Source of the DNA: Pseudomonadota bacterium
Lineage (GTDB): Bacteria > Bdellovibrionota_F > JAHFAK01 > JBDREC01
Assembly: GCA_043820105.1 (NCBI GenBank)
Contig: JBDREC010000046.1
Span: 8,687 to 72,686 of the forward strand
Reading direction: 5' to 3'
DNA: 64,000 nucleotides
This document shows, one piece after another, positions 2,973-42,532 of this stretch. The position numbers and the translations under genes were made by a program. Numbering within the stretch: the first letter of the stretch is position 1; each line of letters opens with the position of its first letter. Under the pieces are notes generated by a model. That model was not told the DNA's origin, did not search any database, and worked only from the letters and a program-made list of their open reading frames with translations.

Positions 2973-4088
2973 TTAAGAGTCGCCAAAGCATGTGCCTAGG
3001 TCTCTGGCTGTATTGACTGTGTCGCAATCAAGTGGAACTGATTTCATTCTGTTTACAGCGTCTTTTAGTGGGACGTAGCGGACAAATGGGGGGTCAAGGG
3101 CTACCATTATTCCTGATTGGCCTTCAGACAAGGCCCTGACTGCTGCTGCTCCAAAGCGTAGTGAAATTAGTCTGTCAAAAGTTGTTGGAGAACCTCCCCT
3201 TAAAAGGTGTCCTAAGATTACGGCTCTTGATTCAATGCCTGTTAATGCTTCTAGCTCTTTAGCTACAGTTTCACCAACACCACCTAGTCTTTCCAGCCGT
3301 CCCAATTCTTTGGAAATAACTGAAACATTGCCATCTGCAGGTTTTGCGCCTTCTGCTACAACTACAATTGAATAATCTCTGCCACTTTCTTTGATATTTT
3401 TTATTTTTTCTGCGACGAGATTAAGGTCATAAGGAATTTCAGGCATTAAAATAACATCAGCGCATGCTGACACACCAGCATTTAGAGCTATCCAGCCTGC
3501 ATATCTTCCCATTACTTCTACTACCATGATTCTATGATGAGACTGGGCAGTGGCGTGTAATCTGTCAATGCAAGATGTAGCGAAACTGACAGCTGAGTCA
3601 AATCCAAAGGTTATTACGGTTTTATCAAGATCATTATCAATTGTTTTTGGAACACCAACTACTTGTAGTCCTAAATCAGCAAAAGCATTTGCGATTTTTA
3701 ATGAACCATCGCCTCCTATCGAAATGAGTGCATCAATTCCATGATCTTTAAATTTTGAAACCAAATCAGGAGTAATATCTTTTTCAAACCAAGAACCATC
3801 TTCTGCTTGTGTTGGATAGCATAAAGGATTTCCCTTATTGGTAGTTCCAAGGATTGTGCCACCTTGATTTGTGATTCCACGTACAGAGTGAGCTGTTAAT
3901 TTAATGATAGGCTCTATATCTTTATAATTTTGAGGAAGAAAAAGACCATTGTATCCATCACGAATACCAACAACTTCCCAGCCTTTGTTGATGGCGCTTA
4001 AAACAGCAGCTCGGATAACAGCATTTAAGCCTGGTGCGTCTCCACCGCCTGTTGAAATTGCAATTTTTTTAATTTTATTTTGATACAT
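2973..4088 (-). CDS. pfk: 6-phosphofructokinase (ATP- or PPi-dependent)
   Basis: 371 aa with PFK-family motifs: the N-terminal GGDAPGLNAVIR, GGDGS, MGR and the PKTIDNDL substrate site. Confidence 0.85.
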   Translation of the reverse strand: MYQNKIKKIAISTGGGDAPGLNAVIRAAVLSAINKGWEVVGIRDGYNGLFLPQNYKDIEPIIKLTAHSVRGITNQGGTILGTTNKGNPLCYPTQAEDGSWFEKDITPDLVSKFKDHGIDALISIGGDGSLKIANAFADLGLQVVGVPKTIDNDLDKTVITFGFDSAVSFATSCIDRLHATAQSHHRIMVVEVMGRYAGWIALNAGVSACADVILMPEIPYDLNLVAEKIKNIKESGRDYSIVVVAEGAKPADGNVSVISKELGRLERLGGVGETVAKELEALTGIESRAVILGHLLRGGSPTTFDRLISLRFGAAAVRALSEGQSGIMVALDPPFVRYVPLKDAVNRMKSVPLDCDTVNTARDLGTCFGDS

Positions 4089-4390
4089 GTATACCTGCTT
4101 TAAATAAATAATGTAATCTAAATTCTATTCTTTATTTCAATATCATCAAGGAAATAGTTAAAATAAGTATTTTCTTTTTATCCAATAGTTTTAGATTTCG
4201 TCTATTTGTCTACTTACTGAAAGGGATCAGCTAGTGGCGATAATAATAGAGTGCAGTTGTCGGTGATATACCCGTTTTAAAAAATTAATTATTAATTATT
4301 ATTTATTGATTATTAATTATTTTTCGAGCGAATTTTTAAAATTTTCAATAATTAATTCTTAACAATTAATTAATCTATACGCGTTTTACA

Positions 4391-4429
4391 TATATAAAAA
4401 GGGGGTACACTCGTTAGAGCGTACCCCCC
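4391..4429 (-). terminator. Rho-independent terminator (minus-strand orientation)
   Basis: On the minus strand the RNA reads GGGGGGUACGCUCUAACGAGUGUACCCCC followed by UUUUUAUAUAU. The stem is 8-11 bp and GC-rich, with a U-tract after it. Confidence 0.5.
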
Positions 4430-4573
4430 TTGTTTCAAAAGTCTAGGACTCTGATTACCTTTGATTTCAGTATTTCTACTTCATATCATTAGCATTTTTC
4501 AAATCCTAGCCCCCTCCGAAATTGTATAAAATAGGCTTTTTTACATGCCCCTTCCAAGCAATTGCATACGTAT
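4392..4573 (-). ncRNA. Candidate sigma-54-dependent small RNA (~180 nt)
   Basis: It is bounded by a perfect sigma-54 promoter and the intrinsic terminator above. No ORF longer than 8 codons lies between them. Confidence 0.4.
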
Positions 4574-4583
4574 TGTTTCCTAG

Positions 4584-4600
4584 AGCAAGATTGGTGCCAG
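4584..4600 (-). promoter_or_regulatory. Sigma-54 (-24/-12) promoter
   Basis: The minus strand reads CTGGCACCAATCTTGCT, i.e. TGGCAC-N5-TTGCT, a full consensus match with correct GG/GC spacing. Confidence 0.5.
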
Positions 4601-4654
4601 CTTGATCACTGTATGTTTTAAGCTATAGGTTATAAGCATTAAGGCTATAATATC

Positions 4655-4693
4655 AAACAGATAGATCCTTGTTCACTTGTTCCCCTGTTTTCT
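4655..4693. repeat. Octamer direct repeats (AAGNGAAC)x4, minus-strand orientation, 55-95 nt upstream of the sigma-54 -24 box
   Basis: The plus strand reads cttgttcacttgttcccctgttttcttgttccc. This is a possible enhancer (UAS) array. Confidence 0.5.
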
Positions 4694-4986
4694 TGTTCCC
4701 TTGTTTTTAAGTGTCAAAATGGGATTTGATGGACAAAAAGTGACACCAGTCACGAAATCCAGCAATATTGCGGGTTTGCAAAAAATGGCTCATCTAAGTT
4801 CTTTCTGAGCAAGGATAATACGGTTTATGCCTAGATTACGCCAAAATTGAGCATTTTACGCTTTGTGATTTTTGTCACAAAACAAGATAAATGTATATAT
4901 TACAATGCCTTATCTTTGGTGGCTCCATGGCACAGCTCTTGCTATAACTATAAAGTAAGCATCGAGGAGTAAAGGGAGAAAAAGCT

Positions 4987-5352
4987 ATGTTATTAGAAAA
5001 AAAATCATTACGATATTTATTATTTGAATATAACGAAACATTTATAAAATATATTAGATTTTTACTTATATTTAATTTGTTAGATGGAATTTTTACAACC
5101 TTGTTTATTGAATTAGGTGTAGCCACAGAAGCTAATCCAATTATGAACGCACTATATAATACTAGCCCAATTACTTTTATGTTTGGCAAGATCATTCTTA
5201 TGATGGCTGGATGTTATTTATTACATAAAAATATTGCTAAGAGTTTAGCTAAGTTAGCCGTTATTTTGGCTTTTGGTGTTTACTCTTTAATCATTATTTA
5301 TCACTTGCTTTTCCTACAAGTTCACATCGTTTGTCTTTGTCTTGCACAATAA
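4987..5352 (+). CDS. Small integral membrane protein (DUF5658-like, conserved E-x-NP motif)
   Basis: 121 aa with 3-4 hydrophobic helices. The TEANPIM motif resembles the DUF5658 family. A GGAG-like RBS (gggagaaaaagct) precedes the ATG. Confidence 0.5.
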   Translation: MLLEKKSLRYLLFEYNETFIKYIRFLLIFNLLDGIFTTLFIELGVATEANPIMNALYNTSPITFMFGKIILMMAGCYLLHKNIAKSLAKLAVILAFGVYSLIIIYHLLFLQVHIVCLCLAQ

Positions 5353-5384
5353 TTTTAACTAATTAATAAACATATTTACCACTT

Positions 5385-5629
5385 GCCTGATTTTAGAAAA
5401 GGAAATCGTATCTTCATTTCAAAAAAAGACTGCTCAAAATCCCCAGCGGGATTTTGGCCTTGATCTCACCGCGCTATTTTCCAAGTATAAGTAAAATGAA
5501 ATTAATGAATTACATTCACTTATATATAGTAATTTCATTTAACTTCTACTAGGAAAAACCGGCTAGCGCGGCTCCGATACACTTTTTTTGAAATGAAGAC
5601 ACGATTCCCTTTTCTTATAAAATCAGGCC
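5385..5629. repeat. ~245-bp nested inverted-repeat element (MITE-like or long structured hairpin)
   Basis: Terminal inverted repeats of ~45 bp (gcctgattttagaaaaggaaatcgtatcttcatttcaaaaaaag versus the reverse complement of the right end) match at ~43 of 47 positions. There are also inner inverted repeats (AAAATCCC-cagc-GGGATTTT; AAATGAAATTA/TAATTTCATTT). Confidence 0.55.
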
Positions 5630-6069
5630 AATATTTAAATATAAATAAAGATAAATAATTAACAGTCTTAATAATACATCAAGATGTGTATTTTTTATAT
5701 AAGAAAATAATAGATTTTTCCGACCAAGTGGGCCGACTGGGGCGCATGCCCTTTTTAAAATAACTTCCCTGAAATTTTCATAAAAAATAAAAGGGGCCTT
5801 AATTCTCGGTTTGGAGAAAGGGTCGTTGTTTTCTCGTATTTTGCATTCAAAAATGACATTGTGGCTATGTTTTGTTTTGTTTTTAAATTATTTTAAGTGT
5901 GAAAAAATATAATAAAAACAAGGTGATCGGTATGATGAAGCTGGGGTTTTTTCATTTGGCATAGTTTTTGGATATACAAAAAGGTACGAACTCGACATTT
6001 TGTCATATTATTGCATAGTGGTTGGAAGGCATTAAAGCTAATGTTAACTACTAAAGAAGGGGGATAGTA

Positions 6070-7263
6070 ATGAAATACTACCTATCAAGACACAAAATTC
6101 TGGTCATTTTCGTAAGTTTTCTATTGATTTTACCATTATCAGCACTTGGAAAAGATAAAAAGAAACAAAAACAAGGATCTTCAAGTAGTTCAAGGGTTTC
6201 ATCTTCAAGTAGCAATGGATCAAGGAGCACTGGAAGTCAAAGGGGATCAAGTGTGCAATCAAGGCCTAGCTCAAGCCAAACTCAGGCATCTCAAGCTAGA
6301 CCAAGTTCAAGTAGACCCCAAGCTTCTCAATCTAGAAGTCAAGCACAGCAAAGAACTGGAACTACCACTCAAACAAGACCAAAACAATCAACTACAGTAG
6401 CAACAACTACTACTCAATCTGGAACAAGGTCACAGACTACGGTTACAAGGGAACAAGGGAACAGGGGAACAACAACTAGCACTCATCAGAGAGGATCAAC
6501 CCAGGTTAGCAGTCATCAAAGACCAACAACTCAAGCTAGCAGTCATCAAGGAAGTGGTTCCCATGGCAATCATGGTGGAACTCATAATAATCAAGGAAAC
6601 CATGGTTCTTCAGGAAATCATGGAAATAATAATCATAACAATAATGGAAGCAGTCATAGAAGAGATACAGTTCATGTAGTTCACCATTATCACCATCATG
6701 CTGTTCATCAAAGACCAAATCCTTATAGACCTTATGTAAGACCCTATGTGAAGTGGAACAGATATGTTACAAAATCTAATAGAAGATTTGTAAGATATGT
6801 TCATTACGCAAGACCTTTTTATTATAGACCATTGTTCATATTTTATATTGCACCTTACAGACCGCATTATACAGTAACTTTTTATTATGAACTGCCAGCA
6901 AGACCACAAAGAGATATGTGTGATATACTTGTCCATGAAGACATGTTAGACGAAGGAAATGATTATTTCTACTATACTATGGTTAATCTTTTCTACAATA
7001 GAGATTTTGATCCTATGTTCACAGATATTTATGATCCAGATAGAGATGCTTATATGCATGAATTAGTTATGGATTATGATTATGCAAGACTAGACAATGG
7101 TTATTGCTCTGCCTTAGTGTCAATTTCACAAAAAGTTGCAGATGATCGTTATACCTATCCATCAGATCCTGAGCTTTATGAAGCTGTTGAGTATCAAGAA
7201 GGTATCGCTCCAAGTTGTGAAGATGCATTGCTTGAAGCTATTAAACATGTTAATCCTTGTTAA
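6070..7263 (+). CDS. Secreted low-complexity protein: Ser/Thr/Gln-rich, then a His/Asn/Gly-rich tract (HHYHHH), then Tyr/Arg/Pro-rich, then an acidic Cys-containing C-terminal domain
   Basis: There is a strong RBS (aaggggga) and a signal peptide (MKYYLSRHKILVIFVSFLLILPLSALG). The 397-aa ORF is long and uninterrupted despite its low complexity. Confidence 0.6.
   Translation: MKYYLSRHKILVIFVSFLLILPLSALGKDKKKQKQGSSSSSRVSSSSSNGSRSTGSQRGSSVQSRPSSSQTQASQARPSSSRPQASQSRSQAQQRTGTTTQTRPKQSTTVATTTTQSGTRSQTTVTREQGNRGTTTSTHQRGSTQVSSHQRPTTQASSHQGSGSHGNHGGTHNNQGNHGSSGNHGNNNHNNNGSSHRRDTVHVVHHYHHHAVHQRPNPYRPYVRPYVKWNRYVTKSNRRFVRYVHYARPFYYRPLFIFYIAPYRPHYTVTFYYELPARPQRDMCDILVHEDMLDEGNDYFYYTMVNLFYNRDFDPMFTDIYDPDRDAYMHELVMDYDYARLDNGYCSALVSISQKVADDRYTYPSDPELYEAVEYQEGIAPSCEDALLEAIKHVNPC
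6437..6465 (+). repeat. Octamer repeat (AAGGGAAC)x3 inside the CDS
   Basis: This is the same octamer family as at 4655 and 7262. Here it encodes TREQGNRG. Confidence 0.6.
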
Positions 7264-17663: not shown

Positions 17664-18152
17664 CTAGAGCTTAACTTGGTCTAGCAATTTGATAAGTTCT
17701 TTGTCAGTGCTTGTCATTTTGAGAAGGTCAACTTTCATTTTTAATAAGTCCTTGAGATTGTTTGGAATGTCTTCTGAATAATGGACTATTAAGAAAATTG
17801 CTTCCTTAACTAATTTTAAGTCACTTAATTCAAGCATTGCTCCAAGTACCTCAAAATCTTCAGGCATACCATATAAATCTAGATATTTATCAATATTTGT
17901 TTTGAAAACTTGACCTGTTTGCTGAGTTTTTAACTTTTGAAGCAATTCGTAATGGTCAAGTGTTCCCTTGTCACCCTTGAACATATTATCAAGGTCCTTT
18001 AGATATTCCTTTTTTGCAATTTTGTTTCGATGCATTTGTTTTTTAGACTTTTGAGCATCGCCACTTGAAGAATCTGAACGACCATCTTTTTTTTGATCTA
18101 TTTCTTTCCAACTAGGGCGGTCATAATGATCTCTATCATCCTTTGAACTCAT
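17664..18152 (-). CDS. Hypothetical protein (basic N-terminus, helical)
   Basis: A 162-aa ORF with no recognisable motif. Confidence 0.4.
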   Translation of the reverse strand: MSSKDDRDHYDRPSWKEIDQKKDGRSDSSSGDAQKSKKQMHRNKIAKKEYLKDLDNMFKGDKGTLDHYELLQKLKTQQTGQVFKTNIDKYLDLYGMPEDFEVLGAMLELSDLKLVKEAIFLIVHYSEDIPNNLKDLLKMKVDLLKMTSTDKELIKLLDQVKL

Positions 18153-18177
18153 AATAATACCTCTTTTAATATTATTA

Positions 18178-18834
18178 TTATTTTAATGGGCTTACTTCGG
18201 TTATTGAAGTTCTATCATAAATTGTTTCAAAAAATGCACAATTATTTGATCCAGGATCAGGATCTGCTAAAGTGCAATTGTCTCCAGCAACATCAGCATT
18301 TAAATCCCCTACAGCTTGAACAACATACCATCCGTCAGAATCATAGGCATCAAGTTGAGCTGCTGTTCTATCGATAAAAAGACCACTGCCTGTAGGTTCT
18401 GAACAAGCACCACTTCCATCGCCAGTACTTAATGGACAGCCCGCAACTCCAGCTTCTACTACATATCTAAAGTAGACATCATAATCAGGTCTTACAGCGA
18501 CTCCACCTGGTCCCCAGGAATCGTAGTTATCTGGATTGTCGGGTTTGTTAGTTACATATGTAAATTTAAGTTTTTCACCATGAGGTAGGTTCGTTGGATT
18601 TCTCGGAAGTGGCAGGTACTGTCCATATTCAACATGGTAACTTTCTTCACCAGCTTTAATTGTCCCAAAGGCAGCTGGGATTTCTGATTTTTTTGATTTT
18701 AAAATGTATCTGTTATATGCAGTTGTGGCTAGACCTGCCAGAATTCCAATTATAACAACTGTAATCATTAACTCTACAAGTGTGAAACCATAATTATTGT
18801 TCTTTATTGTTTGATTAATTTTCATTTTCTTCAT
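18178..18834 (-). CDS. pilA: Type IV pilin (PilA-like, prepilin N-methylation domain)
   Basis: The leader ends in G, followed by FTLVELMITVVIIGILA. The C-terminal domain is Cys-rich. Confidence 0.8.
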   Translation of the reverse strand: MKKMKINQTIKNNNYGFTLVELMITVVIIGILAGLATTAYNRYILKSKKSEIPAAFGTIKAGEESYHVEYGQYLPLPRNPTNLPHGEKLKFTYVTNKPDNPDNYDSWGPGGVAVRPDYDVYFRYVVEAGVAGCPLSTGDGSGACSEPTGSGLFIDRTAAQLDAYDSDGWYVVQAVGDLNADVAGDNCTLADPDPGSNNCAFFETIYDRTSITEVSPLK

Positions 18835-20212
18835 CCTTCATATTTAATTTTTGCATTCGATATCTTAAAGATCTGTGAGATATATTGAGGAGTTTAGCGG
18901 CCTTATTTTTATTTTCTTTTGCTTTTTCCATTGCTTCTATTATAAGACTTTCTTCAAGTGTGGCTAGTTCAAAATCTAAATCAACAGTGCCCTTTGCAAA
19001 AAGTTTTTTGCCGGCGATTGTATTGCTATTGCTGGCCAAAGCATCTTGAACTTCAGGTGGCAGGGAGCTTTCCTGTATTTTATCAGTGCTTTCAAAGGCA
19101 ATGGTTCGTTCAATAATATTTTCAAGCTCTCTAATATTTCCAATATAATTATAATTAATGAGCCGCTGCATTGCTCCAGGTGTAAAACCAATTATTTTTA
19201 AATTGTTTTCCCTTACATATTTTTTAAGAAAATGTTCAGCGAGTATTGGAATATCAGGTTTTCTGTCACGAAGAGGAGGAAGATCAATTTCAACTACTTT
19301 AAGTCTGTAAAAAAGGTCTTCTCTGAACTTATTTGTTGATACATCTTTTTTCAGATCACTATTTGTTGCTGAAATAATTCTAAGGTCAACAGAAATTTCA
19401 TAGGTTCCACCTATTGGAATGAATTTTTTTTCTTGAAGCACACGAAGGAGTTTAACCTGAGTCTGGTTTGGTAATTCTCCCACTTCATCAAGGAATATTG
19501 TGCCATTATTGGCAGCTTCAAAAAGGCCTTTTTTATTGGTATCAGCTCCAGTGAATGCACCTTTTACATAACCAAACAATTCACTTTCAATTAAATTGTC
19601 AGGAATGGCGCCACAGTTAACTGGAACAAAGGGACCATTTTTAAATTTACTGTTAAAGTGAATAGCACGTGCAATAAGATCTTTTCCTGTTCCAGATTCT
19701 CCAGCAATTAAAACAGAAAGCTTTGTGTCTTTTATTCTATCAATTGTATCAAAAATTGTTCGTATTTGAGGGGTATCACCTATAATATTTCCATATCCAA
19801 ACTTATCTGTAACAAGTTTTTTTAGAGCTTTGTTTTCTTTTGCCAAAGTTGCTTTTTCAAGTGCATTTCTTATGATAATTTTAATTTCATCGACTTTAAA
19901 AGGTTTCATTATGTAGTCATAAGCACCTTTTTTCATAGCTTCAATTGCTGATTCTGTTGAAGCGTAAGCTGTTATCATGAGGACTATAATTTCACTTTTT
20001 ATTTTTTTAGCTTTATCTAAGATTTCAAATCCATCTATTTCTGGCATGCAAATATCAGTTATTACCATATCAAAATCATTATTTGCTAATAGTTGAATAG
20101 CTTTTGTGCCTGATGTTGTGCTAGTGGAATCGTAGCCCTCATTACTTAATAAGATATCAAAAAACTCGCACATACTTTTTTCATCATCAACGAAGAGGAT
20201 TTTAGACATCAA
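18815..20212 (-). CDS. pilR: Sigma-54-dependent response regulator (PilR/NtrC family)
   Basis: A receiver domain (DDE...D), an AAA+ sigma-54 interaction domain (GESGTGK, GAFTGA) and a C-terminal Fis-type HTH. Confidence 0.85.
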   Translation of the reverse strand: MMSKILFVDDEKSMCEFFDILLSNEGYDSTSTTSGTKAIQLLANNDFDMVITDICMPEIDGFEILDKAKKIKSEIIVLMITAYASTESAIEAMKKGAYDYIMKPFKVDEIKIIIRNALEKATLAKENKALKKLVTDKFGYGNIIGDTPQIRTIFDTIDRIKDTKLSVLIAGESGTGKDLIARAIHFNSKFKNGPFVPVNCGAIPDNLIESELFGYVKGAFTGADTNKKGLFEAANNGTIFLDEVGELPNQTQVKLLRVLQEKKFIPIGGTYEISVDLRIISATNSDLKKDVSTNKFREDLFYRLKVVEIDLPPLRDRKPDIPILAEHFLKKYVRENNLKIIGFTPGAMQRLINYNYIGNIRELENIIERTIAFESTDKIQESSLPPEVQDALASNSNTIAGKKLFAKGTVDLDFELATLEESLIIEAMEKAKENKNKAAKLLNISHRSLRYRMQKLNMKDEENEN

Positions 20213-21896
20213 TTGGCTCCTTGTTTTCGTATGTTGGCATAGTAATAGTAACAGTTGTTCCTAATCCGCGGCTACTGCTAAAGGCAATATTGGATTTATG
20301 TATTTCTAAAATATTATGCACAATAGCCAGACCTAGCCCAGTACCACCTGGTTTTGTTGTAAAAAATGGATCATAGATCTTTTCCATTTCAGTAGCAGGA
20401 ATACCAACTCCTGTATCTGCAATTTTAATTGTTAATAATTTTTCATCTTCATCGTTATCTGAAGATGTCGATATTATTAATTTGCCACCATAGGGCATTG
20501 ATTCAAGTGCATTTTTAATTATATTCCAGAAAACTTTTTTCATTTGCTCTTTGTCAGCATAAATATAAGCATCATTAAATTCATAAATTTCTTCAATATT
20601 TTCAGGAATTCCAAGTTTTTCAGCGATAATCTTTAATTCTTCAATTAGAAGATCTTTAAGTAATATTTTTTCAAATTTTGTTTGACCTGGTTTAACATAA
20701 AAAAGAAAATTCGTGATTAATAAATTAAGTCTATCTGTTTCCCGTATGACAATATTCATTAATTTTTCATTTTTTTCATCTTTTTCCATGGTACTTTGTA
20801 GTAGTTCTATTGAACCTCGCATTGATGTAAGTGGGTTTCTAAATTCATGCGCTATGCCAGCTGCTAACTTACCAACTGCTGCTAATCTGTTTTGGCGCTT
20901 AATTTTTTCTTCAAGTTCTTTATACTCAGTTAAATCATGAATATTTAATATTTTGCCTTCAATAGTTGTATCTAGACCATATAGATTAGAAATAGAGTAG
21001 CCCAGGTATTTTTGTTTTTCTTCTTTTGTTTTAAATTGACCTTCAAAGGCCCAGGGATATTTGCTGCTATTATTTTCTTCTTGTGAGTCTAATATACCAT
21101 CAAAAAGGTCATTAATTTTACAACCATTAACTTCTTCAAAGGAGTAATCTGTAATTTGCTCAAAGGCATTGTTTATAAAGGTAATTCTGTTTTCAACATC
21201 TAAAGTTGCAAGACCATTATCGATTGATTCTACAATATTTTGATTTAAAATTCTTAACTTTCTAAGATCAGCGTTTTTCTTGATAAGATCTGAATGAACA
21301 ACTTTTAGTTGTTCTGAAAGATAACCACTCAAATAAGCTATAATAAAGAAAGTTAATATGTTCAAACTAAGTTTGTTTAAGAGGTCATAGCTTGAAAATA
21401 TAACTAAAGAATCTGTAAATACATGGGAGCTTGAAATATATCCAAAGTATTGAAGGTCAATTAAGGCCCCATAAAATATTGAAATAACAGATGCAGCTTT
21501 ATAGGCTCCTGATTTAGAAAGCAAAATACTCGCATTTATAATTGTAAGGAAATACATAAAAGGGAAGGGGCTTTCAATGCCACCAGTTGCATAAATTAAA
21601 GCAGTTGAAAAAATGATATCCCATAATATTTGGACATTTGAAAATAGGATTAAATTCTTAGCCAAATTCTTTTTTTCAAGGAAGGCAAATATTATTGAAA
21701 AGAAATAAGTAATTCCTATAAGAATATAAAAAATTAACAAACCTGAGGAAATGAATATTCTTTTAAAATAAATTTCAATGGTAACTACAGTTCCCAAAAG
21801 GATTGTTATTATTGCAACTCTTATAAAAAGGTACCAGGGCAGTTTTGATGCAAGATTCATTTCAAGAATTTCTTGAGATAATTTTTTATTTTCCAT
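20202..21896 (-). CDS. pilS: Sensor histidine kinase (PilS-like)
   Basis: A multi-TM N-terminus, a PAS-like domain, a HisKA H-box (HEFRNPL) and a HATPase_c domain (DTGVGI, GGTGLGL). Confidence 0.8.
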   Translation of the reverse strand: MENKKLSQEILEMNLASKLPWYLFIRVAIITILLGTVVTIEIYFKRIFISSGLLIFYILIGITYFFSIIFAFLEKKNLAKNLILFSNVQILWDIIFSTALIYATGGIESPFPFMYFLTIINASILLSKSGAYKAASVISIFYGALIDLQYFGYISSSHVFTDSLVIFSSYDLLNKLSLNILTFFIIAYLSGYLSEQLKVVHSDLIKKNADLRKLRILNQNIVESIDNGLATLDVENRITFINNAFEQITDYSFEEVNGCKINDLFDGILDSQEENNSSKYPWAFEGQFKTKEEKQKYLGYSISNLYGLDTTIEGKILNIHDLTEYKELEEKIKRQNRLAAVGKLAAGIAHEFRNPLTSMRGSIELLQSTMEKDEKNEKLMNIVIRETDRLNLLITNFLFYVKPGQTKFEKILLKDLLIEELKIIAEKLGIPENIEEIYEFNDAYIYADKEQMKKVFWNIIKNALESMPYGGKLIISTSSDNDEDEKLLTIKIADTGVGIPATEMEKIYDPFFTTKPGGTGLGLAIVHNILEIHKSNIAFSSSRGLGTTVTITMPTYENKEPIDV

Positions 21897-21905
21897 TCGG
21901 ATTTA

Positions 21906-23123
21906 TTATTCTCCCATTCCACCGGCCATTTTAAATACTGGCAAGTACATTGCAACAACAACTGTTCCAATAACAACACCTAAAAAGGCCATGATTAGAG
22001 GTTCTAGTGCGGAGGTTAAAGCGCCAACAGCTTCATCAACTTCTTCTTCATAAAAATCGGCTATTTTATTGAGCATTTGATCTACAGCACCGGCTTGTTC
22101 ACCAACCTTTATCATTTGGCAAACCATTTCAGGAAAAAGACCACTTTCACTCATGGGCTCAGCCATGTTTTTACCTTCTGAAACTCTTTCTCTAACTACC
22201 ATAATTGCTTTTTGAATTACACTGTTGCCAGCCGTGGTACTAACAATTTCAAGTGATTCTAGAATGGGGACACCAGAGGTCATAAGTGTTCCAAGCGTTC
22301 TTGCAAATCTGGCGATAGCAATTTTTTTGATAACATTACCAACAATTGGTAATTTCAAATATAGAATATCAAAAAATCGTCTGCCTCTTGGTGATTTTTT
22401 GAAATATTTAAAACCAGTTATAGATGAAGCAATTCCTATTATAACTAATAATATATGATTTTCAACGGTTGTACTAATATCAATAACGGCTTGTGTAATA
22501 CCAGGTAATTCGCCACCAAGATCATCAAACATAGTTTGGAACATTGGAATAACAAATTTAACTAAAACTAAAACAACAACACCTGAAAAGATGAGAATAC
22601 CCATGGGATATGTCATTGCACTTTTAACCTTCTTTTTCAATGACATGCTCTTTTCCACATAAATTGCAAGTCGTTGCAGAATAATATCCAAAATACCACC
22701 GACTTCACCAGCTCTAATTAAGTTTACCATTAGTGAATCAAAGGCAAAGTCATGTTTAGACAAAGCATCAGCAAAGGTTTGACCACTTTCAACAGCCTTT
22801 TTTACGTCAATTAAAGTATCTTTAAAAAGAATATTTTTTTGCTGTGAACCTAGAACATCTAAGCAAGAAACAAGAGGTAGACCCGCATCAATCATTGTTG
22901 AAAACTGTCTTAGAAAGATAACCATATCTTTGGTTGGAATGTTTTTTGAAAGGTTGATTTTATTCAGCTTAGCAAATGAAAACCCACTATGTTCAGCAAC
23001 GGTTTCAACTCTAATGTTTTTCTTTTTTAGGTATTCGGTTACTCCTTCTACCGTATCTGTTTCATAGATTCCCTTAACTTTTTTCCCAGCTTTGTTTAAG
23101 CCCGTATATTTAAAAAAAGGCAT
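21906..23123 (-). CDS. pilC: Type IV pilus assembly platform protein PilC (GspF family)
   Basis: Two GspF repeats and three TM segments. Length is 405 aa. Confidence 0.85.
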   Translation of the reverse strand: MPFFKYTGLNKAGKKVKGIYETDTVEGVTEYLKKKNIRVETVAEHSGFSFAKLNKINLSKNIPTKDMVIFLRQFSTMIDAGLPLVSCLDVLGSQQKNILFKDTLIDVKKAVESGQTFADALSKHDFAFDSLMVNLIRAGEVGGILDIILQRLAIYVEKSMSLKKKVKSAMTYPMGILIFSGVVVLVLVKFVIPMFQTMFDDLGGELPGITQAVIDISTTVENHILLVIIGIASSITGFKYFKKSPRGRRFFDILYLKLPIVGNVIKKIAIARFARTLGTLMTSGVPILESLEIVSTTAGNSVIQKAIMVVRERVSEGKNMAEPMSESGLFPEMVCQMIKVGEQAGAVDQMLNKIADFYEEEVDEAVGALTSALEPLIMAFLGVVIGTVVVAMYLPVFKMAGGMGE

Positions 23124-25824: not shown

Positions 25825-26238
25825 TTATAGGCTTTGACCAGTAGTAGCCATTGTTAAAGAGTGATGTTTGACGCCATTTAGGTTTTTTAATTCATCAGAA
25901 AGCTTTTTAACAATTGAGGATTTACCTTTTACAACAATTATCTCAAGACAGTTGTTATGATCTAAGTGAACATGCTGGGATGAAATAATTATTTTATGAA
26001 AGTCATGTTGAACCTTTGTAGCTTTTCCCTGCATTTCTTTTTTATGATGATCAAATACAATTGTAATTGTGCCAGCGACCTCACGATTTGAACGCCAATC
26101 TGCCTCAACAAGCTCATTTCGAAGAAGCTCAGAAATAGCTTTTGAGCGGTTACAAACCCCGCGTTTTCCAATTAAGGTATCAAATTCTTTTATAAGTTTT
26201 GCATCTAAAGAAATACTAAATCGTTTTAGCTTTTCCAT
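25825..26238 (-). CDS. nikR: Nickel-responsive regulator NikR (RHH + ACT-like metal-binding domain)
   Basis: An N-terminal ribbon-helix-helix (RFSISLDAKLIKEFD). The C-terminal domain has conserved His/Cys residues (HH...H.H..C). Length is 137 aa. Confidence 0.7.
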   Translation of the reverse strand: MEKLKRFSISLDAKLIKEFDTLIGKRGVCNRSKAISELLRNELVEADWRSNREVAGTITIVFDHHKKEMQGKATKVQHDFHKIIISSQHVHLDHNNCLEIIVVKGKSSIVKKLSDELKNLNGVKHHSLTMATTGQSL

Positions 26239-26256
26239 TGTAAGGCCATCTCCAGT

Positions 26257-26280
26257 GTTACGAAATTAACAAAACGTAAC
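26257..26280. promoter_or_regulatory. Palindromic operator candidate GTTACG-N12-CGTAAC upstream of nikR
   Basis: A perfect 6-bp inverted repeat, 19-42 nt upstream of the nikR start codon. Confidence 0.3.
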
Positions 26281-26344
26281 ATCACAATTGAGTTGTTTTG
26301 TAAAGAAAAAAGTGATGTTTGAATTTTAAAATTAATTTTTTGAA

Positions 26345-26884
26345 CTAATTAGCGGGACATGCACGAGGAAAATTTTCAAGATCACTTATTGCATCTTCAG
26401 TTCTGTCCAGGTTTACACAGGACCTTGCTAAGATAGGAACCATTTTTTTTCCAAGTGATTTCATTCCAGCAATTCCAAGGGGGTTTGGTATTATGGCTAC
26501 ATTTCCATCAGCTTTATATTTTATCACGTCACCATTTGGCCTTCTTACATATGACTCTCCATCTGTAAAACTTACTTTGATGACTTCATTTCCACAAGGA
26601 CCGCTTATTGCAATTCCAGATACTCTAAAATCAGAACCATCACCATCAGCTTGGTCTATTGCACCTAATACTTCATCAATTGTTGAATCACATATTCCCT
26701 CTTTTCTGAGCTCTTGTTTTGTTTTGTATCTATTTTGGTGCTCTAACCATAGGTCATCAAGCGCTGATTGAAGGTTAGTTCTAACATTGCAATTACTATC
26801 ATTTGCATATATTAAGGATGTTGAAATAAAGGTTATTGTTAATATTATGAATATAATTTTTGATGTTTTCATATTTGTTCTCAT
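26345..26884 (-). CDS. Secreted hypothetical protein (signal peptide, six Cys)
   Basis: A 179-aa ORF with an N-terminal signal peptide. Confidence 0.5.
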   Translation of the reverse strand: MRTNMKTSKIIFIILTITFISTSLIYANDSNCNVRTNLQSALDDLWLEHQNRYKTKQELRKEGICDSTIDEVLGAIDQADGDGSDFRVSGIAISGPCGNEVIKVSFTDGESYVRRPNGDVIKYKADGNVAIIPNPLGIAGMKSLGKKMVPILARSCVNLDRTEDAISDLENFPRACPAN

Positions 26885-27319
26885 CTCTAAAATATTTATG
26901 CTCTGATGAGCAATAAAAGTAATTACTTGTTTTTTTTACATCAAAATTAGATAATTGCAAAATAAGTGCCAAAATAAGAAACTATAAAAAACAATAAAAA
27001 CAGGGGCATATTATAATCATTGAATGTTTGAAATATTAAAAATGGCCAAATTTCAGCACTTAAAAAGATGCTTTTTATTTTCTAATATGGTAGTTGTGTT
27101 TTTCAATTTTGACAAAAGAAGTTAATTTTTATAAGAGATTTTTTGGTTATAATTACATGTCTTTCTAATATGCTAAAATAAAAGACTTATTTTAATACAT
27201 TTTTTTGTTGCCACATTTGAAAAGCCCTTTTAAGTTGGCATAAAACTTGTAATAGGTAGGTGTTATTTCTGCTAATGTATGTTTGAATGATTTTGTTAAT
27301 AACGATTTAGGAGTTTAAA

Positions 27320-30869: not shown

Positions 30870-31268
30870 TTATAGGTTTTTATATTTTTGTTCTAGTTCA
30901 AACTCTGAAGAAGTTACATAGTCTTCAATTTTTCTCATTCTTTCATTCATGGTTCTATATTTATGTCTTATATCTGCAAATGTTTCCTTTGGTGTTAGGG
31001 TAACAGATCTCCAAAATATAGCCTCTTCTTCTGATCGATATTGATTAGCTGGTTTTTTCTTTAGTATAAATATTAAAGCAATATATCCTATCCAAAAAAA
31101 TGGTGATAAGAAGATTGCTCCTATTATAATAATTAATCTAACAAGTGTTCTGGAAATGTTTAAATAATCTGCTATTCCAGCACAAATTCCAAATAAAATG
31201 CCTTTATCAGGATTCCTGTACAGGCGATGTGGATTTATTGATTCGTAACTCATATTTTGTTCCTCCAT
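30870..31268 (-). CDS. pspC: Phage shock protein C
   Basis: A PspC domain (GILFGICAGIADYLNI) and a C-terminal EDYVTSSEF comparable to E. coli PspC. Confidence 0.75.
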   Translation of the reverse strand: MEEQNMSYESINPHRLYRNPDKGILFGICAGIADYLNISRTLVRLIIIIGAIFLSPFFWIGYIALIFILKKKPANQYRSEEEAIFWRSVTLTPKETFADIRHKYRTMNERMRKIEDYVTSSEFELEQKYKNL

Positions 31269-31483
31269 TTTGGGTTGTCTTTGTCTAGAATTGTTTCAAT
31301 TGAATTTATCCTTGTTTCCATTTTTTGTGCTGCTTGCCAAAGGTCAGATAATATTTGCTCATCTTCTCGTGATAGTGTTTTTGCTGATTTTATTTTGGCT
31401 ATATAGTGGAGGATTAGCCAAAATGGAACTATGATTATAAGAAAAGCAAAAAATAATGAAACTGTTACAATTGTTGGGGCCAT
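31250..31483 (-). CDS. pspB: Phage shock protein B
   Basis: 77 aa: a single TM followed by LHY...SxxDxxxLxxLxxxAxxMxxRIxxxExILD, which aligns with E. coli PspB. Confidence 0.7.
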   Translation of the reverse strand: MAPTIVTVSLFFAFLIIIVPFWLILHYIAKIKSAKTLSREDEQILSDLWQAAQKMETRINSIETILDKDNPKWRNKI

Positions 31484-31492
31484 TTTATTTCC

Positions 31493-31560
31493 TTTGAAAG
31501 TGGTAAGCTGTAGGTTGTAAGCTGTAAGAAAGGAGTACAGCGTACGGCGTACAGCGTACA
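31493..31560. repeat. Degenerate heptamer repeat block: (GTGGTAA-like)x4 then (GTACAGC)x4
   Basis: Read directly from the sequence. It lies in the pspA-pspB intergenic spacer. Confidence 0.7.
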
Positions 31561-31568
31561 GCGTTTGC

Positions 31569-32231
31569 TTATTTTCCTAGTTTTTCTTTTAGTTTTTGTA
31601 GTTCTGTTTCTATTTCGTTTTCGTGTTCTAGTTTTTCGAATTCATCTTCTAAGGATTTTTTGCCCCCCTTTATTTTCATGGCTTCTATTTCGCCTTCCAT
31701 TCTATCAATATCGCGCTCGAATTTATCGAATTTATTAAGTGCTTTTGAGGTTTCTGATTTGTGAATTTGCCTGTTCATTTCAAGTCTTGAAGCTGCTGAC
31801 TGCTTTCTGGCTATAATAGTTTTTTGTTTTGTTTTTGCTTCACTAAGTTTATCTTCAAGTTGTTTTATATCTTTTTTAAAATGATCTAAGATTTCATTAA
31901 GATTGTTAAACTCAATATTATAGTCATTTTCAATTCTTTGCTTTTTAGCTTTTTCTTCAATTGCAGCCTTTGCTAAATCATCTCTTCCTTTTTCAACGGC
32001 AAGCTCTGCTTTGCTTTGCCACATATTTTGATTTTCTTTTAAAAGTTCAATATTTCTTTCAATAGTTTTTTTGTCAGCAATGTATTTTGCTGCTTGAGAC
32101 TTGACTTCAACAAGAGTATCTTCCATCTCTTGAATCATTAGCCTGACCATTTTTTCTGGATCCTCTGCTTTATCAAGCATATGGATTATGTTTGAATTAA
32201 TAATATCTGTAAGTCTTGAAAAAATTCCCAT
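31569..32231 (-). CDS. pspA: Phage shock protein A (PspA/IM30)
   Basis: The N-terminus MGIFSRLTDIINSNI...AEDPEKMVRLMIQEMEDTLVEV is nearly identical to the E. coli PspA N-terminus. The rest is coiled-coil. Confidence 0.9.
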   Translation of the reverse strand: MGIFSRLTDIINSNIIHMLDKAEDPEKMVRLMIQEMEDTLVEVKSQAAKYIADKKTIERNIELLKENQNMWQSKAELAVEKGRDDLAKAAIEEKAKKQRIENDYNIEFNNLNEILDHFKKDIKQLEDKLSEAKTKQKTIIARKQSAASRLEMNRQIHKSETSKALNKFDKFERDIDRMEGEIEAMKIKGGKKSLEDEFEKLEHENEIETELQKLKEKLGK

Positions 32232-32295
32232 TTTTGCCTCCTGTTTATATGGTAAATTAATACCCATATGTTATTAAAATATTCAAGGAATTAAT

Positions 32296-32568
32296 TTAAT
32301 AATCCCTGAATTTATCATAAGGTTGGTGGCAAATACAAAATCCTGTATCTGCCCAGTCCTTTTTTCTATCAATATTTTCTGATTCCTCAGATAAAATTTC
32401 ATAGTTTTTTTTGTTTTTATCTGAAAGGCTTGTTGCTTCATTTTGTATAAGATTAAAATTGTTTTCAAGGGAGCTTAGTTTTTCTTCAGAAGATAAAAAT
32501 AATAAAAAGCCAATTGAAAGGAATAGGCTTTCTTTGATTATATTATTTTTATTAATTATACTTATCAT
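32296..32568 (-). CDS. Hypothetical small protein in the pspA leader (may be non-coding)
   Basis: A 90-aa ORF between the sigma-54 promoter and pspA, with a hydrophobic N-terminus. Confidence 0.25.
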   Translation of the reverse strand: MISIINKNNIIKESLFLSIGFLLFLSSEEKLSSLENNFNLIQNEATSLSDKNKKNYEILSEESENIDRKKDWADTGFCICHQPYDKFRDY

Positions 32569-32616
32569 TATACTTTTTTCCTTTTTAACTAAGCCCTAAA
32601 ACATAAGAAGGCGATA

Positions 32617-32634
32617 TTGCATGGAATGTGCCAA
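32617..32634 (-). promoter_or_regulatory. Sigma-54 promoter of the psp operon
   Basis: The minus strand reads TTGGCACATTCCATGCAAT (TGGCAC-N5-ATGCA). It is positioned as in classical PspF-dependent pspA promoters. Confidence 0.55.
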
Positions 32635-32765
32635 TTCTTTGACATTGGATAAGTGTCTATAATCAAACACCAAATTTCGTCTCATCTGAAAAAGCTTGAT
32701 TTTTATAGTGGCGTAAAATACCATGAAGTGGCATAAAACAATAAATAAGGTTTAAAAAAACCAAT

Positions 32766-33788
32766 TTGAGTGATTTCGTTGAAAATAATCCCTTAATAGG
32801 GGAATCTGAATCTTTTCATCTGGCTTTAAACAAGGTTTCAGTTTTAGCAAAAATAAATAAACCTGTTTTAGTAGTTGGTGAAAGAGGAACAGGTAAAGAA
32901 TTATTTGCAGCCAGGCTTCATTATCTTTCTGACCGCTGGGACAATGACTATTTAAAGCTTAATTGTTCAACTTTAACTGAAGGTATTTTAGAATCAGAAC
33001 TCTTTGGTCATGAGGCGGGTTCTTTTACAGGTGCTTTAAAAAAACATATTGGTGTATTTGAAAAAGCTGATAATGGAACTTTATTTCTTGATGAAATTGC
33101 TAATACATCCTTAAGGCTTCAGGAAAAAATACTAAGAGTAATTGAATATGGTGAATTTACAAGAGTTGGTGGAAATATTAATCTTAAGACTGATGTGAGA
33201 ATTGTTGCAGCTACTAATATTGACTTGCCTAATTTGGCCAGTTGCGGCCAATTTCGCTTTGATTTGCTTGATCGCTTATCTTTTGATGTTATTACAATAC
33301 CCCCTTTAAGAGAAAGAGGGCTTGATATTGTTTTGCTGGCAGAGCATTTTGCAATGAAAATGGTAAAGCAAATTAAGGGAGATTGTTTTTATGGCTTTTC
33401 TGATGAAAGCAAAAACAAGCTTTTAGCACATGCTTGGTCAGGAAATGTTCGTGAACTAAGAAATGTTATTGAAAGAACCGTTTTTCATGCTCATGTAAAC
33501 AAAAAAAAGACATATGAAATTATAATTAATCCATTTGAATCTGAGCATAAGTTGCCTGGTGCTTCTCTTGACTCAAAAGATAATATTGATATTATTCAAG
33601 AAAATATAAAAGAAAAAGGTCTTGAGGAAGTTTTAGATTTTTATTTAGCGGTTGATAATTATAAGAAAGAAATTTTGGGAAATGCATTAAGGAAAAATAA
33701 TTTTAATCAGAAAAAAACTGCATATAAGTTGGGTCTAACGTATAATCAGTTTAGGGGTCTAATTAGAAAGTTTAAGATAAAAAGATAA
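32766..33788 (+). CDS. pspF: Sigma-54 activator PspF (no receiver domain)
   Basis: It aligns with E. coli PspF (LIGESESF...KPVLVVGERGTGKELFAARLH) and carries GAFTGA and a C-terminal HTH. The start is a TTG. Confidence 0.85.
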   Translation: MSDFVENNPLIGESESFHLALNKVSVLAKINKPVLVVGERGTGKELFAARLHYLSDRWDNDYLKLNCSTLTEGILESELFGHEAGSFTGALKKHIGVFEKADNGTLFLDEIANTSLRLQEKILRVIEYGEFTRVGGNINLKTDVRIVAATNIDLPNLASCGQFRFDLLDRLSFDVITIPPLRERGLDIVLLAEHFAMKMVKQIKGDCFYGFSDESKNKLLAHAWSGNVRELRNVIERTVFHAHVNKKKTYEIIINPFESEHKLPGASLDSKDNIDIIQENIKEKGLEEVLDFYLAVDNYKKEILGNALRKNNFNQKKTAYKLGLTYNQFRGLIRKFKIKR

Positions 33789-40777: not shown

Positions 40778-41971
40778 CTATGATAGAGAAGCTAAAAAAT
40801 CGCATATCATTGTAGGTGAATAAATCTTTTCATCTTTTGCTGGCATTAAGGGCGTGCTGATAAATTTTACACCAAGATCTTCGATTTTATTTACATCAAT
40901 TGTGCTTCTGATTGGTGAGTTTGCAAGATCTGTTACGACGAAGTTAAGTAAATTGCTTGTGCTTACGTTATCGGAACAATCTTTTTTTAGGTATTCCAAT
41001 AATACTTTTACTGATTCATCTGGATTGAGTCCGAATCTTTCTGGGTCTTCGTAAGAGTTCATTAAATAAACTTTTGGACAATTTGCCTTTGCTATTGCTG
41101 ATCCCACGCCCTTAGGCAATAAATTTACCAATAAGGAAGAATAAAAAGAACCCATAGGATAACAGATTAAGTCAGCACTATTGATAAGCGTAACTATCTT
41201 TTCTTCAGTTTCAATATCAGCGCTTTCATTGCTTTCATGATTTCTTGTTAAGAATATATTTTTTATCTTTTTATTAAGTGGTTTTTGCTCTTTTCCTGTT
41301 ATTAAATCTTGGCCTACTAGCTTAACACCATCTGAAAGCTCGACACCAATATGCATACTTTCACTAGTTACAGGTCTGACTACTCCTCTTGATTCAACAA
41401 GCTTTGAAAACATGAAAATCACTGAATCAATATCTTTGTCTTGGGAAAAATAACCACCAACTATTATAAGGTTGCCAATACTGGCTCCTTTTAAGTCAAA
41501 ATTGTTCGGCATAATATCTACAAAGAATTGAAGGTGATTTGTAATGATTTTTCTCATTGGGTTTGAGATTATTGAAATCATTGGATGGCTGCCATTAATA
41601 ATATTTAGAAGGATTGCCAATAATTCTTCCTTTGCTTTATCAAGTGGCAACCTATGGGCAAAAAGCTTATAAATTTCTGGATTACCTTTTATAGATTGAT
41701 CAGCCAGAGCCATCATTCTATTTCTTAAATCGCCAACAGCTATCATATCAAAGGCATCTCTAATTTTTCGAGAACTTCCACCTGAATCAAAAGCTGTAAT
41801 AATATGAATAGTATTATGCGAATATTTAATTATTTCTTTGCTGATTTCCCTAAGTGCTGTGCCACCAGAAAAAAACAAAATCTTTGGTCCAAGCTCTGGA
41901 GTTTTTTTAAATCTAGCGATTTTAATTTCATCAGGAATAGAAACTTGTCTGGTTATTTCAACTTTTGTCAT
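40778..41971 (-). CDS. YvcK/CofD-family protein (gluconeogenesis factor / UPF0052)
   Basis: It has SGGTALREI (the GGGTG-like P-loop) and FDSGGSSRKIRD, which are YvcK/CofD family motifs. Confidence 0.7.
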   Translation of the reverse strand: MTKVEITRQVSIPDEIKIARFKKTPELGPKILFFSGGTALREISKEIIKYSHNTIHIITAFDSGGSSRKIRDAFDMIAVGDLRNRMMALADQSIKGNPEIYKLFAHRLPLDKAKEELLAILLNIINGSHPMISIISNPMRKIITNHLQFFVDIMPNNFDLKGASIGNLIIVGGYFSQDKDIDSVIFMFSKLVESRGVVRPVTSESMHIGVELSDGVKLVGQDLITGKEQKPLNKKIKNIFLTRNHESNESADIETEEKIVTLINSADLICYPMGSFYSSLLVNLLPKGVGSAIAKANCPKVYLMNSYEDPERFGLNPDESVKVLLEYLKKDCSDNVSTSNLLNFVVTDLANSPIRSTIDVNKIEDLGVKFISTPLMPAKDEKIYSPTMICDFLASLS

Positions 41972-42158
41972 AAAAAGATATGATCCTTTCGGTAACTATT
42001 GATAAATAAATTAAGCTTTAATAATAGTAAAATCAATGTTAAAAATTGATTTTAAAAATGTAAAACTTGTGCCTTAAAATTTTCAGTTTTAACATAAAAA
42101 TCAAATTTTGGATTTTGTAAGCTTCTGGAATTACAATCAAAATGAACATGGTGTGATT

Positions 42159-42174
42159 TGGCACACAAAGTGCA
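42159..42174 (+). promoter_or_regulatory. Sigma-54 promoter
   Basis: TTGGCACACAAAGTGCA, i.e. TGGCAC-N5-GTGCA, with correct GG/GC spacing. Confidence 0.5.
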
Positions 42175-42386
42175 AAATATAACTTTTGTATGGCTAAACA
42201 CGAAGGGAAATGGGAATGTTATCTTATACAATAATGTCAATTTATATCACTCAGACAATTATAATATCATTTAGAAATAATTATCAATTTATATGTAATA
42301 TCATTTATAGGTCAATTTATCTCAATAAAGATAAAAAGCTCCTACCATACTAAAGTAGGATTTTATTGTACACCCCATGTCATTGC

Positions 42387-42418
42387 GGAGGGGGGATGGA
42401 TATCCCCTCTCCATTTTT
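42387..42418 (+). terminator. Rho-independent terminator
   Basis: GGAGGGGGGAUGGAUAUCCCCUCUCC (an 11-bp stem with G-U wobbles) followed by AUUUUU. Confidence 0.55.
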
Positions 42419-42532
42419 AAAGCATTTAAATTCAAAATCCCGTACTACACATAATTTTTATTAATTTGATTTGTAGGTTTCAATTTTGTAAGTTTTTACA
42501 AGAATAAAGCTTTTAATTAAAGGAGGATTATC

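Follow-up and report, generated by a model that had tools for sequence, protein, structure and literature searches.

A candidate sigma-54-dependent small RNA gene, divergent from a DUF5658 gene, in a Pseudomonadota bacterium

Small RNAs (sRNAs) driven by sigma-54 are well established in several bacteria (Qrr with LuxO, CrcZ with CbrB and Pxr with nla19), and the sequence-only reading of the DNA described here, which pointed to such precedents, was right in this respect. GlmY is also a sRNA dependent on GlrR and sigma-54, and in the nasF leader/NasR system of Klebsiella a conditional terminator is located downstream of a sigma-54 promoter. The Qrr RNAs are described as Hfq-dependent base-pairing regulators (10.1101/2021.07.01.450815). 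Synthesis of CrcZ is stimulated by CbrB at an RpoN-dependent promoter (PMC4063720), and Pxr of Myxococcus xanthus and other myxobacteria, which is ~108 nucleotides (nt) long, is always found located directly downstream of nla19 (PMC5568312). Here we describe a candidate for a further RNA of this type in a 64,000-nt stretch of contig JBDREC010000046.1 from the metagenome-assembled genome of an uncultured Pseudomonadota bacterium; this whole stretch is referred to as the window, and it holds ~46 protein genes, has a G + C content of 33% and is 10.7% non-coding. On the minus strand, between a phosphofructokinase gene (pfk) and a divergent gene of the DUF5658 family, a sigma-54 promoter is followed by a strong intrinsic terminator. 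We consider it moderately probable, judging from the sequence, that the interval between them is an independent gene for a sigma-54-dependent non-coding sRNA of ~179 nt. The features on which this reading is built are as follows.

4584-4600, minus strand: sigma-54 promoter CTGGCAC-CAATC-TTGCT (CTGGCACCAATCTTGCT), with GG at -24/-25 and GC at -12/-13.
4395-4573, minus strand: predicted transcript of ~179 nt, its start placed by geometry and its 3′ end placed in the U-tract.
4390-4431, minus strand: intrinsic terminator found in a hairpin scan, with a 15-base-pair (bp) stem, 8 G-C pairs and the loop UAAC, followed by UUUUUAUAUAU.

The promoter can be read directly, and both its sequence and its position are as the earlier reading gave them. 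Within CTGGCACCAATCTTGCT, TGGCAC occupies 4599-4594, the spacer is CAATC, and TTGC occupies 4588-4585 and is followed by T, all on the minus strand. The GG and GC elements are spaced by exactly 10 bp in TGGCAC-N5-TTGCW, as expected of a sigma-54 promoter, and in a weighted scan it obtained the maximum score of 14.5/14.5. Exact copies of TGGCAC-N5-TTGC were found three times on the two strands of the window, with 0.14 expected from dinucleotide-preserving shuffles of the same sequence, and none of 100 shuffles reached three. The looser pattern TGGCAC-N6-TGC was found five times, always in intergenic DNA, versus 0.21 expected; the ~0.1 chance matches estimated beforehand for TGGCAC-N5-xTGC were therefore of the right order of magnitude. 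The promoter match of the candidate RNA is far beyond chance.

The weighted scan returned eight sites scoring at least 13.5/14.5 in the window, seven of which are intergenic. Five of the high-scoring intergenic sites sit 44-76 nt 5′ of co-oriented start codons; the RNA promoter is one of two exceptions to this spacing, with 496 nt to the next start codon, that of pfk. The sites close to start codons are listed below.

4928-4943, plus strand: TGGCAC-AGCTC-TTGCT, a perfect site, 44 nt 5′ of the DUF5658 start codon.
26956-26971, minus strand: a perfect site, 72 nt 5′ of the gene for a 179-amino-acid (aa) secreted-looking protein.
32618-32633: TGGCAC-ATTCC-ATGC, 50 nt 5′ of the psp operon.
61718-61733, minus strand: TGGCAT-N5-TTGCA, 76 nt 5′ of the gene for a 1215-aa protein without family match.
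62072-62087, plus strand: TGGCAT-N5-TTGCA, 48 nt 5′ of the gene for a Pal-like lipoprotein of the OmpA family.

In the psp locus (30870-33788), pspF is divergent from the sigma-54 promoter, which is followed by a 90-aa open reading frame (ORF), pspA and pspC. The PspF protein (32766-33788) scored 455 bits against the TIGR02974 equivalog cut-off of 443.6 and has a Sigma54_activat domain. This arrangement is textbook-like and provides an internal positive control for the sigma-54 motif. An NtrC-family, PilR-like activator, also with a Sigma54_activat domain, is encoded at 18815-20212, where it adjoins genes for a PilS-like kinase, a PilC-like protein and a pilin. Since two activators are encoded and the motif is found 5′ of the psp operon, sigma-54 is evidently used in this genome, and the motif is taken to be functional in it.

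On the minus strand the terminator reads AAGGGGGGTACGCTC-TAAC-GAGTGTACCCCCTT at 4431-4398, then TTTTTATATAT to about 4390. Its hairpin begins 153 nt past the TTGCT of the promoter, and the G-run starts 170 nt from the -24 element, in agreement with the ~170 nt reported earlier; the description of a strong intrinsic terminator at this position was likewise accurate. When the whole window was scanned for hairpins abutting a T-tract, this one was found to be the most stable in the 64 kilobases (kb), with a free energy (dG) of -23.1 kcal/mol and UUUUU directly 3′ of the stem. Only two such hairpins have a dG of -20 kcal/mol or lower, the one at 4390-4431 on the minus strand and one at 42387-42412 on the plus strand (-21.0 kcal/mol), which is part of a second promoter-terminator unit.

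42159-42419, plus strand: second unit, with TGGCAC-ACAAA-GTGC, a predicted start near 42185 and the terminator at 42387-42412, then TTTTT.

At the ends of the ~46 protein genes of the window no hairpin-plus-T-tract of -15 kcal/mol or lower was found, and canonical intrinsic terminators are almost absent from these gene ends. Both strong terminators can be called orphans, as the closest gene upstream of each is on the opposite strand, and both are located 150-215 nt 3′ of a sigma-54-type site.

By standard sigma-54 geometry, transcription would start at A4573, 12 nt past the C (4585) of the -12 GC. All three frames of the ~179-nt interval are broken by stop codons, and the longest ORF with an ATG start has 8 codons (MQLLGRGM and a stop) and lies 6 nt past the predicted start. 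The statement that only ORFs of 8 codons or fewer are present holds for ATG starts and has to be amended for TTG starts, with which 22-codon ORFs exist, one at 4557-4489 without a Shine-Dalgarno sequence and another that crosses the terminator. The small ORFs of the interval gave no Pfam match. No co-oriented ORF is located upstream of the terminator, and the interval, which is intergenic and has a promoter and a terminator of its own, is organised as a stand-alone gene. That the locus encodes a tiny peptide, from either the 8-codon ATG ORF or the 22-codon TTG ORF at 4557-4489, is very improbable. Both ORFs do exist, and the second unit contains a 47-codon ATG ORF (42210-42353) with a hydrophobic N-terminus; neither ORF of the present interval, however, has a Shine-Dalgarno sequence (the AGGAAAC 5′ of the ATG precedes the predicted start site), neither has a family match, and stops interrupt every frame.

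The full-length transcript (4395-4573) was predicted to fold with a dG of -60.6 and a z-score of -6.07 (z = -5.76 over 4390-4576). With the terminator removed, the body (4432-4573) had a z-score of -2.88 on the minus strand, where 2 of 300 shuffles were as stable, and -0.52 in antisense orientation; as background, 40 random windows gave a mean z-score of 0 with a standard deviation of 0.73. The minimum free energy (MFE) and centroid structures are identical and consist of a free 5′ end, two stem-loops and the terminator.

4573-4563, minus strand: 11-nt 5′ end AUACGUAUGCA, unpaired in the fold.
4521-4562, minus strand: stem-loop 1, on which MFE and centroid structures agree and which is kept in the 485-nt fold.
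4434-4520, minus strand: stem-loop 2, a long hairpin that joins the arm UUCGGAGG..CUAGGAUUU to GAGUCCUAG..CUUUUGAA, many of the pairs being G-U.

These modules, the terminator included, persisted when the full 485 nt down to pfk were folded. G + C makes up 38.5% of the transcript, versus 22.5% of the 306-nt spacer that separates the terminator from pfk.

The promoter and the terminator might each be real and yet not form one unit, or their juxtaposition might be coincidental; for example, a silent or poised sigma-54 site could belong to the control region of the DUF5658 gene, with the hairpin acting as an insulator that protects pfk from transcription arriving from upstream. It is established that the sigma-54 holoenzyme may be bound to a site and yet not fire, intergenic space concentrates promoters and terminators alike, and we estimate a chance of ~7% that a given terminator is located 120-260 nt 3′ of a promoter. 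The same layout is, however, found at the two strongest terminators of the window, and the chance that both have a promoter 120-260 nt upstream was estimated at ~0.005; the null used for this was a conservative one, with ~7 real promoters spread across the ~13.7 kb of intergenic strand-positions. The interval is also enriched in G + C and structured on the transcribed strand only, and an insulator would have nothing to stop if no minus-strand transcription comes from upstream. We regard it as quite improbable that the two elements are unconnected or associated by chance.

The earlier reading had proposed searches with covariance models and Rfam, and no Rfam family was found to recognise the interval. 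At gathering score no match was obtained in the whole window; at E up to 10 over 4050-6100, six weak and unrelated matches were obtained, the best of which was SurA (E = 0.28) on the opposite strand. No tRNA or transfer-messenger RNA gene was found. The candidate is like the Vibrio Qrr1-5 RNAs (LuxO/sigma-54) in that its short predicted transcript is non-coding, has a sigma-54 promoter and ends at a Rho-independent terminator; the Qrr RNAs differ in being ~100 nt long with a conserved core and in the location of qrr1 next to luxO, and the candidate has no Rfam Qrr match. The likeness to Pxr is that of a 'deltaproteobacteria-like' organism rich in sigma-54 activators (PMC5568312), whereas the candidate is ~179 nt long, adjoins no activator gene and has no Rfam match (Pxr included if in release 15). 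GlmY and CrcZ are sigma-54-dependent non-coding RNAs of ~150-400 nt tied to central carbon or amino-sugar metabolism, and the candidate adjoins pfk; GlmY and CrcZ, however, titrate RapZ or Hfq via repeated motifs and adjoin activator genes, while the candidate has no evident repeated loop motifs. For Qrr, GlmY/GlmZ, CrcZ, Pxr and NrsZ, neither a covariance-model match in Rfam nor the adjacency of an activator gene was found. Because it has no such match, no adjacent activator gene, and a different size and sequence, we conclude that the candidate resembles the known sigma-54 sRNAs in its predicted transcription and, by these sequence comparisons, belongs to none of those families.

If it is borne out, the locus would add a sigma-54-dependent sRNA from a lineage without cultured or sequenced close relatives, and riboregulators under enhancer-dependent promoters would be shown to exist outside Vibrio, enterobacteria, Pseudomonas and myxobacteria. 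Two features would set the locus apart from the known cases: the RNA gene would be away from its activator gene, and a divergent control region would be shared with a protein gene. The type of RNA is a familiar one and opens no long-standing question; the locus is rather a clean test case for sequence-only sRNA prediction, as it combines an alternative-sigma promoter, an orphan terminator and strand-specific folding.

The region upstream of the RNA promoter contains the divergent DUF5658 gene and several repeated or palindromic sequences.

4987-5352, plus strand: gene for a small membrane protein of the DUF5658 family, 121 aa (Pfam PF18902, E = 4.6e-19).
4667-4705: 8-bp tandem repeat, reading GAACAAGG on the minus strand, ~5 copies, 68-106 bp upstream of the RNA -24 element.
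4740-4753: palindrome GTGAC-N4-GTCAC, unique in the window.
4762-4771: palindrome GCAATATTGC, unique in the window.
4862-4881: palindrome TTTGTGA-N6-TCACAAA, unique in the window, ~50-65 bp upstream of the DUF5658 promoter.

The '2-kb gene-poor region' in which the RNA had been placed thus holds a 121-aa gene with its own perfect sigma-54 promoter (4928-4943), and the -24 elements of the two divergent promoters are 329 bp apart. The GAACAAGG tandem repeat is a candidate site for an activator or an architectural protein; GGAACAAG was found 9 times in the window versus 1.7 expected. The palindromes at 4740-4771 are located midway between the divergent promoters, at a distance of 147-181 bp from either -24 element, which makes them a candidate shared enhancer. 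The palindrome at 4862-4881 matches the consensus TGTGA-N6-TCACA and is a putative CRP/FNR-type site. Neither the tandem repeat nor any of the three palindromes recurs at the other sigma-54 promoters of the window. It is reasonable to suppose that a shared enhancer fires both divergent promoters, and since the second perfect promoter faces away, 329 bp upstream, the RNA and the DUF5658 gene are probably switched on together.

Taken as an independent sRNA gene, the locus would work in the following way. An enhancer-binding protein would bind upstream, either at the GAACAAGG repeats (-70 to -105) or at the palindromes toward the divergent promoter, and once activated it would open the closed complex at TGGCAC-N5-TTGC. 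Transcription would proceed from near A4573 and end at the hairpin and U-tract (4431-4395). The product would begin with an unpaired stretch of 11 nt, followed by two stem-loops and then the terminator hairpin with its U-tail, a build usual for trans-acting, chaperone-bound base-pairing sRNAs; by analogy with these, it may act in trans by pairing with target mRNAs. The DUF5658 membrane protein and the RNA would probably be co-induced by the same enhancer. The earlier proposal of an sRNA is partly supported: the promoter, the terminator, the non-coding character, the strand-specific fold, the G + C enrichment and the lack of a match to known RNA families all agree with it, and the descriptions of the ORFs and of the gene-poor surroundings have been corrected.

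Downstream of the terminator, the next gene is pfk.

2973-4088, minus strand: ATP-dependent 6-phosphofructokinase gene (pfk; Pfam PFK, E = 6e-99).

This gene is co-oriented with the RNA and begins 310 nt 3′ of the terminator. The main rival explanation is therefore built on it: the interval would be the 5′ leader of pfk, transcribed from a sigma-54 promoter and carrying a conditional terminator, at which signal-dependent antitermination or an alternative fold gives read-through. The nasF system has the same layout, in which a sigma-54 promoter precedes a structured leader (~150-200 nt) that ends in a strong terminator, with a co-oriented gene beyond it, and the second unit also precedes a co-oriented gene. 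Several observations nevertheless make a leader unlikely. The distance of 310 nt to the start codon is long, and this spacer, with 22.5% G + C, contains several sigma-70-like hexamer pairs between the terminator and the pfk ATG, for example TTGATG-16-TAGAAT at 4149-4122; because such promoters are located downstream of the terminator, pfk does not need the sigma-54 promoter at 4584-4600, nor is it a gene of the kind that sigma-54 typically controls. The five sigma-54 promoters of mRNAs in the window sit 44-76 nt from their start codons. The candidate has no two-hairpin ANTAR-type target or antiterminator as in nasF. On inspection, no upstream segment was found that could compete for the G6 arm of the terminator, because the body has no C-run; the one alternative would pair the G-runs with the C5U5 arm; it falls far short of the 15-bp hairpin in strength and is already engaged in stem-loop 2. 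Whether the RNA was folded alone or in the 485-nt context, MFE and centroid structures coincided and the terminator was retained, so that no sign of attenuation was found, and among the Rfam riboswitch and leader families none gave a match at E up to 10. Within the spacer, the part at 4270-4384 is extremely AT-rich and contains ATTAATT tandem repeats (4284-4321), 45-nt imperfect inverted repeats and sigma-70-like hexamer pairs.

An sRNA from this locus might also act by sequestering a protein, as a CsrA/RsmA- or Hfq-type sponge, or by mimicking a ribosome-binding site. CrcZ, which is sigma-54-dependent and titrates Hfq, offers a precedent (PMC4063720). The RNA contains three purine-rich GGA/G-run elements, UUGGAAGGGGC, UCGGAGGGGGC and ACAAGGGGGGU, which are notable at 33% G + C, and the exact sequence GGAGGGGG is present twice in the window, once in this RNA and once in the terminator of the second unit. 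The GGA motifs are, however, found in predicted stems and not in loops; with one mismatch allowed, GGAGGGGG-type sequences number 9 versus 10.7 expected, and no CsrA gene is located in the window. For these reasons a protein sponge is a minority option of low probability.

The second unit is located 114 nt upstream of a co-oriented gene for a 670-aa protein without family match. Its folding is no better than that of shuffles (z = -1.44), and Rfam searches at E up to 10 over 41950-42560 gave weak unrelated matches only. It was considered as a paralogue of the first unit and this was rejected, as 129 of 1000 shuffles attained the local alignment score of the pair. Since the two share no significant sequence, a family of siblings is unsupported, and the second unit resembles the first in architecture only. 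It may be an sRNA, a leader or, because of its 47-codon ORF, a small-protein gene. A broader proposal is that the lineage has its own class of short, strongly terminated sigma-54 riboregulators, with at least two in 64 kb that alone among the transcripts of the window end at canonical strong terminators, distinct from Qrr, GlmY, Pxr and CrcZ and uncoupled from activator genes, of which the present one would be co-fired with a membrane-protein gene by a shared enhancer; we hold this to be rather improbable. In such a class, Shine-Dalgarno-like G-runs might titrate an RNA-binding protein or ribosomes.

Several observations weigh against an independent sRNA gene. No activator gene is adjacent, the neighbours being pfk and the DUF5658 gene, and the nearest activator is the PilR-like one at 18815-20212, 14 kb away. 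The location of pfk downstream in the same orientation leaves room for a leader function. Hfq, CsrA and rpoN were absent from the window by tblastn, a result that is uninformative for a 64-kb piece. Pairing runs of at least 10 between the RNA and 46 translation-initiation regions numbered 27, compared with 32 in shuffles. No close relatives were found in protein, genome and metagenome collections, hence conservation lends no support. The BamA protein, compared with 5.8 billion proteins, gave a best match of 54% identity (partial, on a 2-kb contig) and then 40-42%; its nearest relatives (40-54%) have skp, not pfk, after bamA, have a G + C content of 39-49% and are not syntenic. For PFK, identity levels off at 70-74% across unrelated phyla, and the DUF5658 protein found no relative but itself, the identical protein being entered as 'DUF5658 family protein [Pseudomonadota bacterium]'.

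Since BamA reaches no more than 54% (partial) or 42% and the DUF5658 protein finds only itself, the source lineage appears to be essentially unsampled. The named lower matches of BamA were from Deltaproteobacteria, Bdellovibrionota and Desulfobacterota. Among 80 genome loci of PFK, with a best identity of 72% and from unrelated phyla, none had a sigma-54 motif upstream, and PFK homologues of 74% identity were located inside ATP-binding cassette (ABC)-transporter operons and were not syntenic. A metagenome scan for the pattern of promoter, 140-170 nt and GGGGGGTAC gave 33 matches with no likeness beyond the pattern itself, and plasmid and phage collections gave no match. The longest target pairing run was 14, a length reached in 55% of shuffles (the 46 window genes only), and target prediction with RNAduplex returned long, unrealistic duplexes.

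Other features were observed around the DUF5658 gene and at the remaining sigma-54 loci. At 5390-5620, in the space that separates the DUF5658 gene from the one that follows, there is a nested inverted repeat of ~220 bp, with outer 34-nt arms 94% and inner 28-nt arms 89% complementary. It is present once in the window, has no Rfam match and is predicted to form a single long hairpin (dG -104 for the minus and -87 for the plus strand); it could be an element like a miniature inverted-repeat transposable element (MITE) or a structured RNA. A 397-aa protein is encoded at 6070-7263 on the plus strand, with a signal peptide and a long low-complexity region rich in Ser, Thr, Gln, His and Asn, and it has no Pfam or NCBIfam match; inside its coding region, at 6445-6472, a 28-nt stretch is 93% identical to the GAACAAGG/CCTTGTTC repeat, in inverted orientation.

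The sites at 61718-61733 (minus) and 62072-62087 (plus) form a divergent pair 339 bp apart, a spacing near-equal to that of the 4599/4928 pair. The region 25825-26971 on the minus strand encodes the 179-aa protein, which matches no family and whose N-terminus resembles a signal peptide; a NikR-family regulator gene comes next. The type IV pilus regulatory cluster (17664-23123, minus strand) comprises genes for the PilC-like T2SSF protein, the PilS-like kinase with a domain of six transmembrane segments (6TM), the PilR-like activator and the pilin. No high-scoring sigma-54 site was seen before the pilin in the window scan; the pilin has an N-methylation motif, and its ORF overlaps the end of the PilR-like activator gene. 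In the psp locus, the spacer between pspC and pspA is 300 bp long and relatively GC-rich (36%), and short GTACAGCG/GTACGGCG repeats are present at 31535-31577 on the plus strand.

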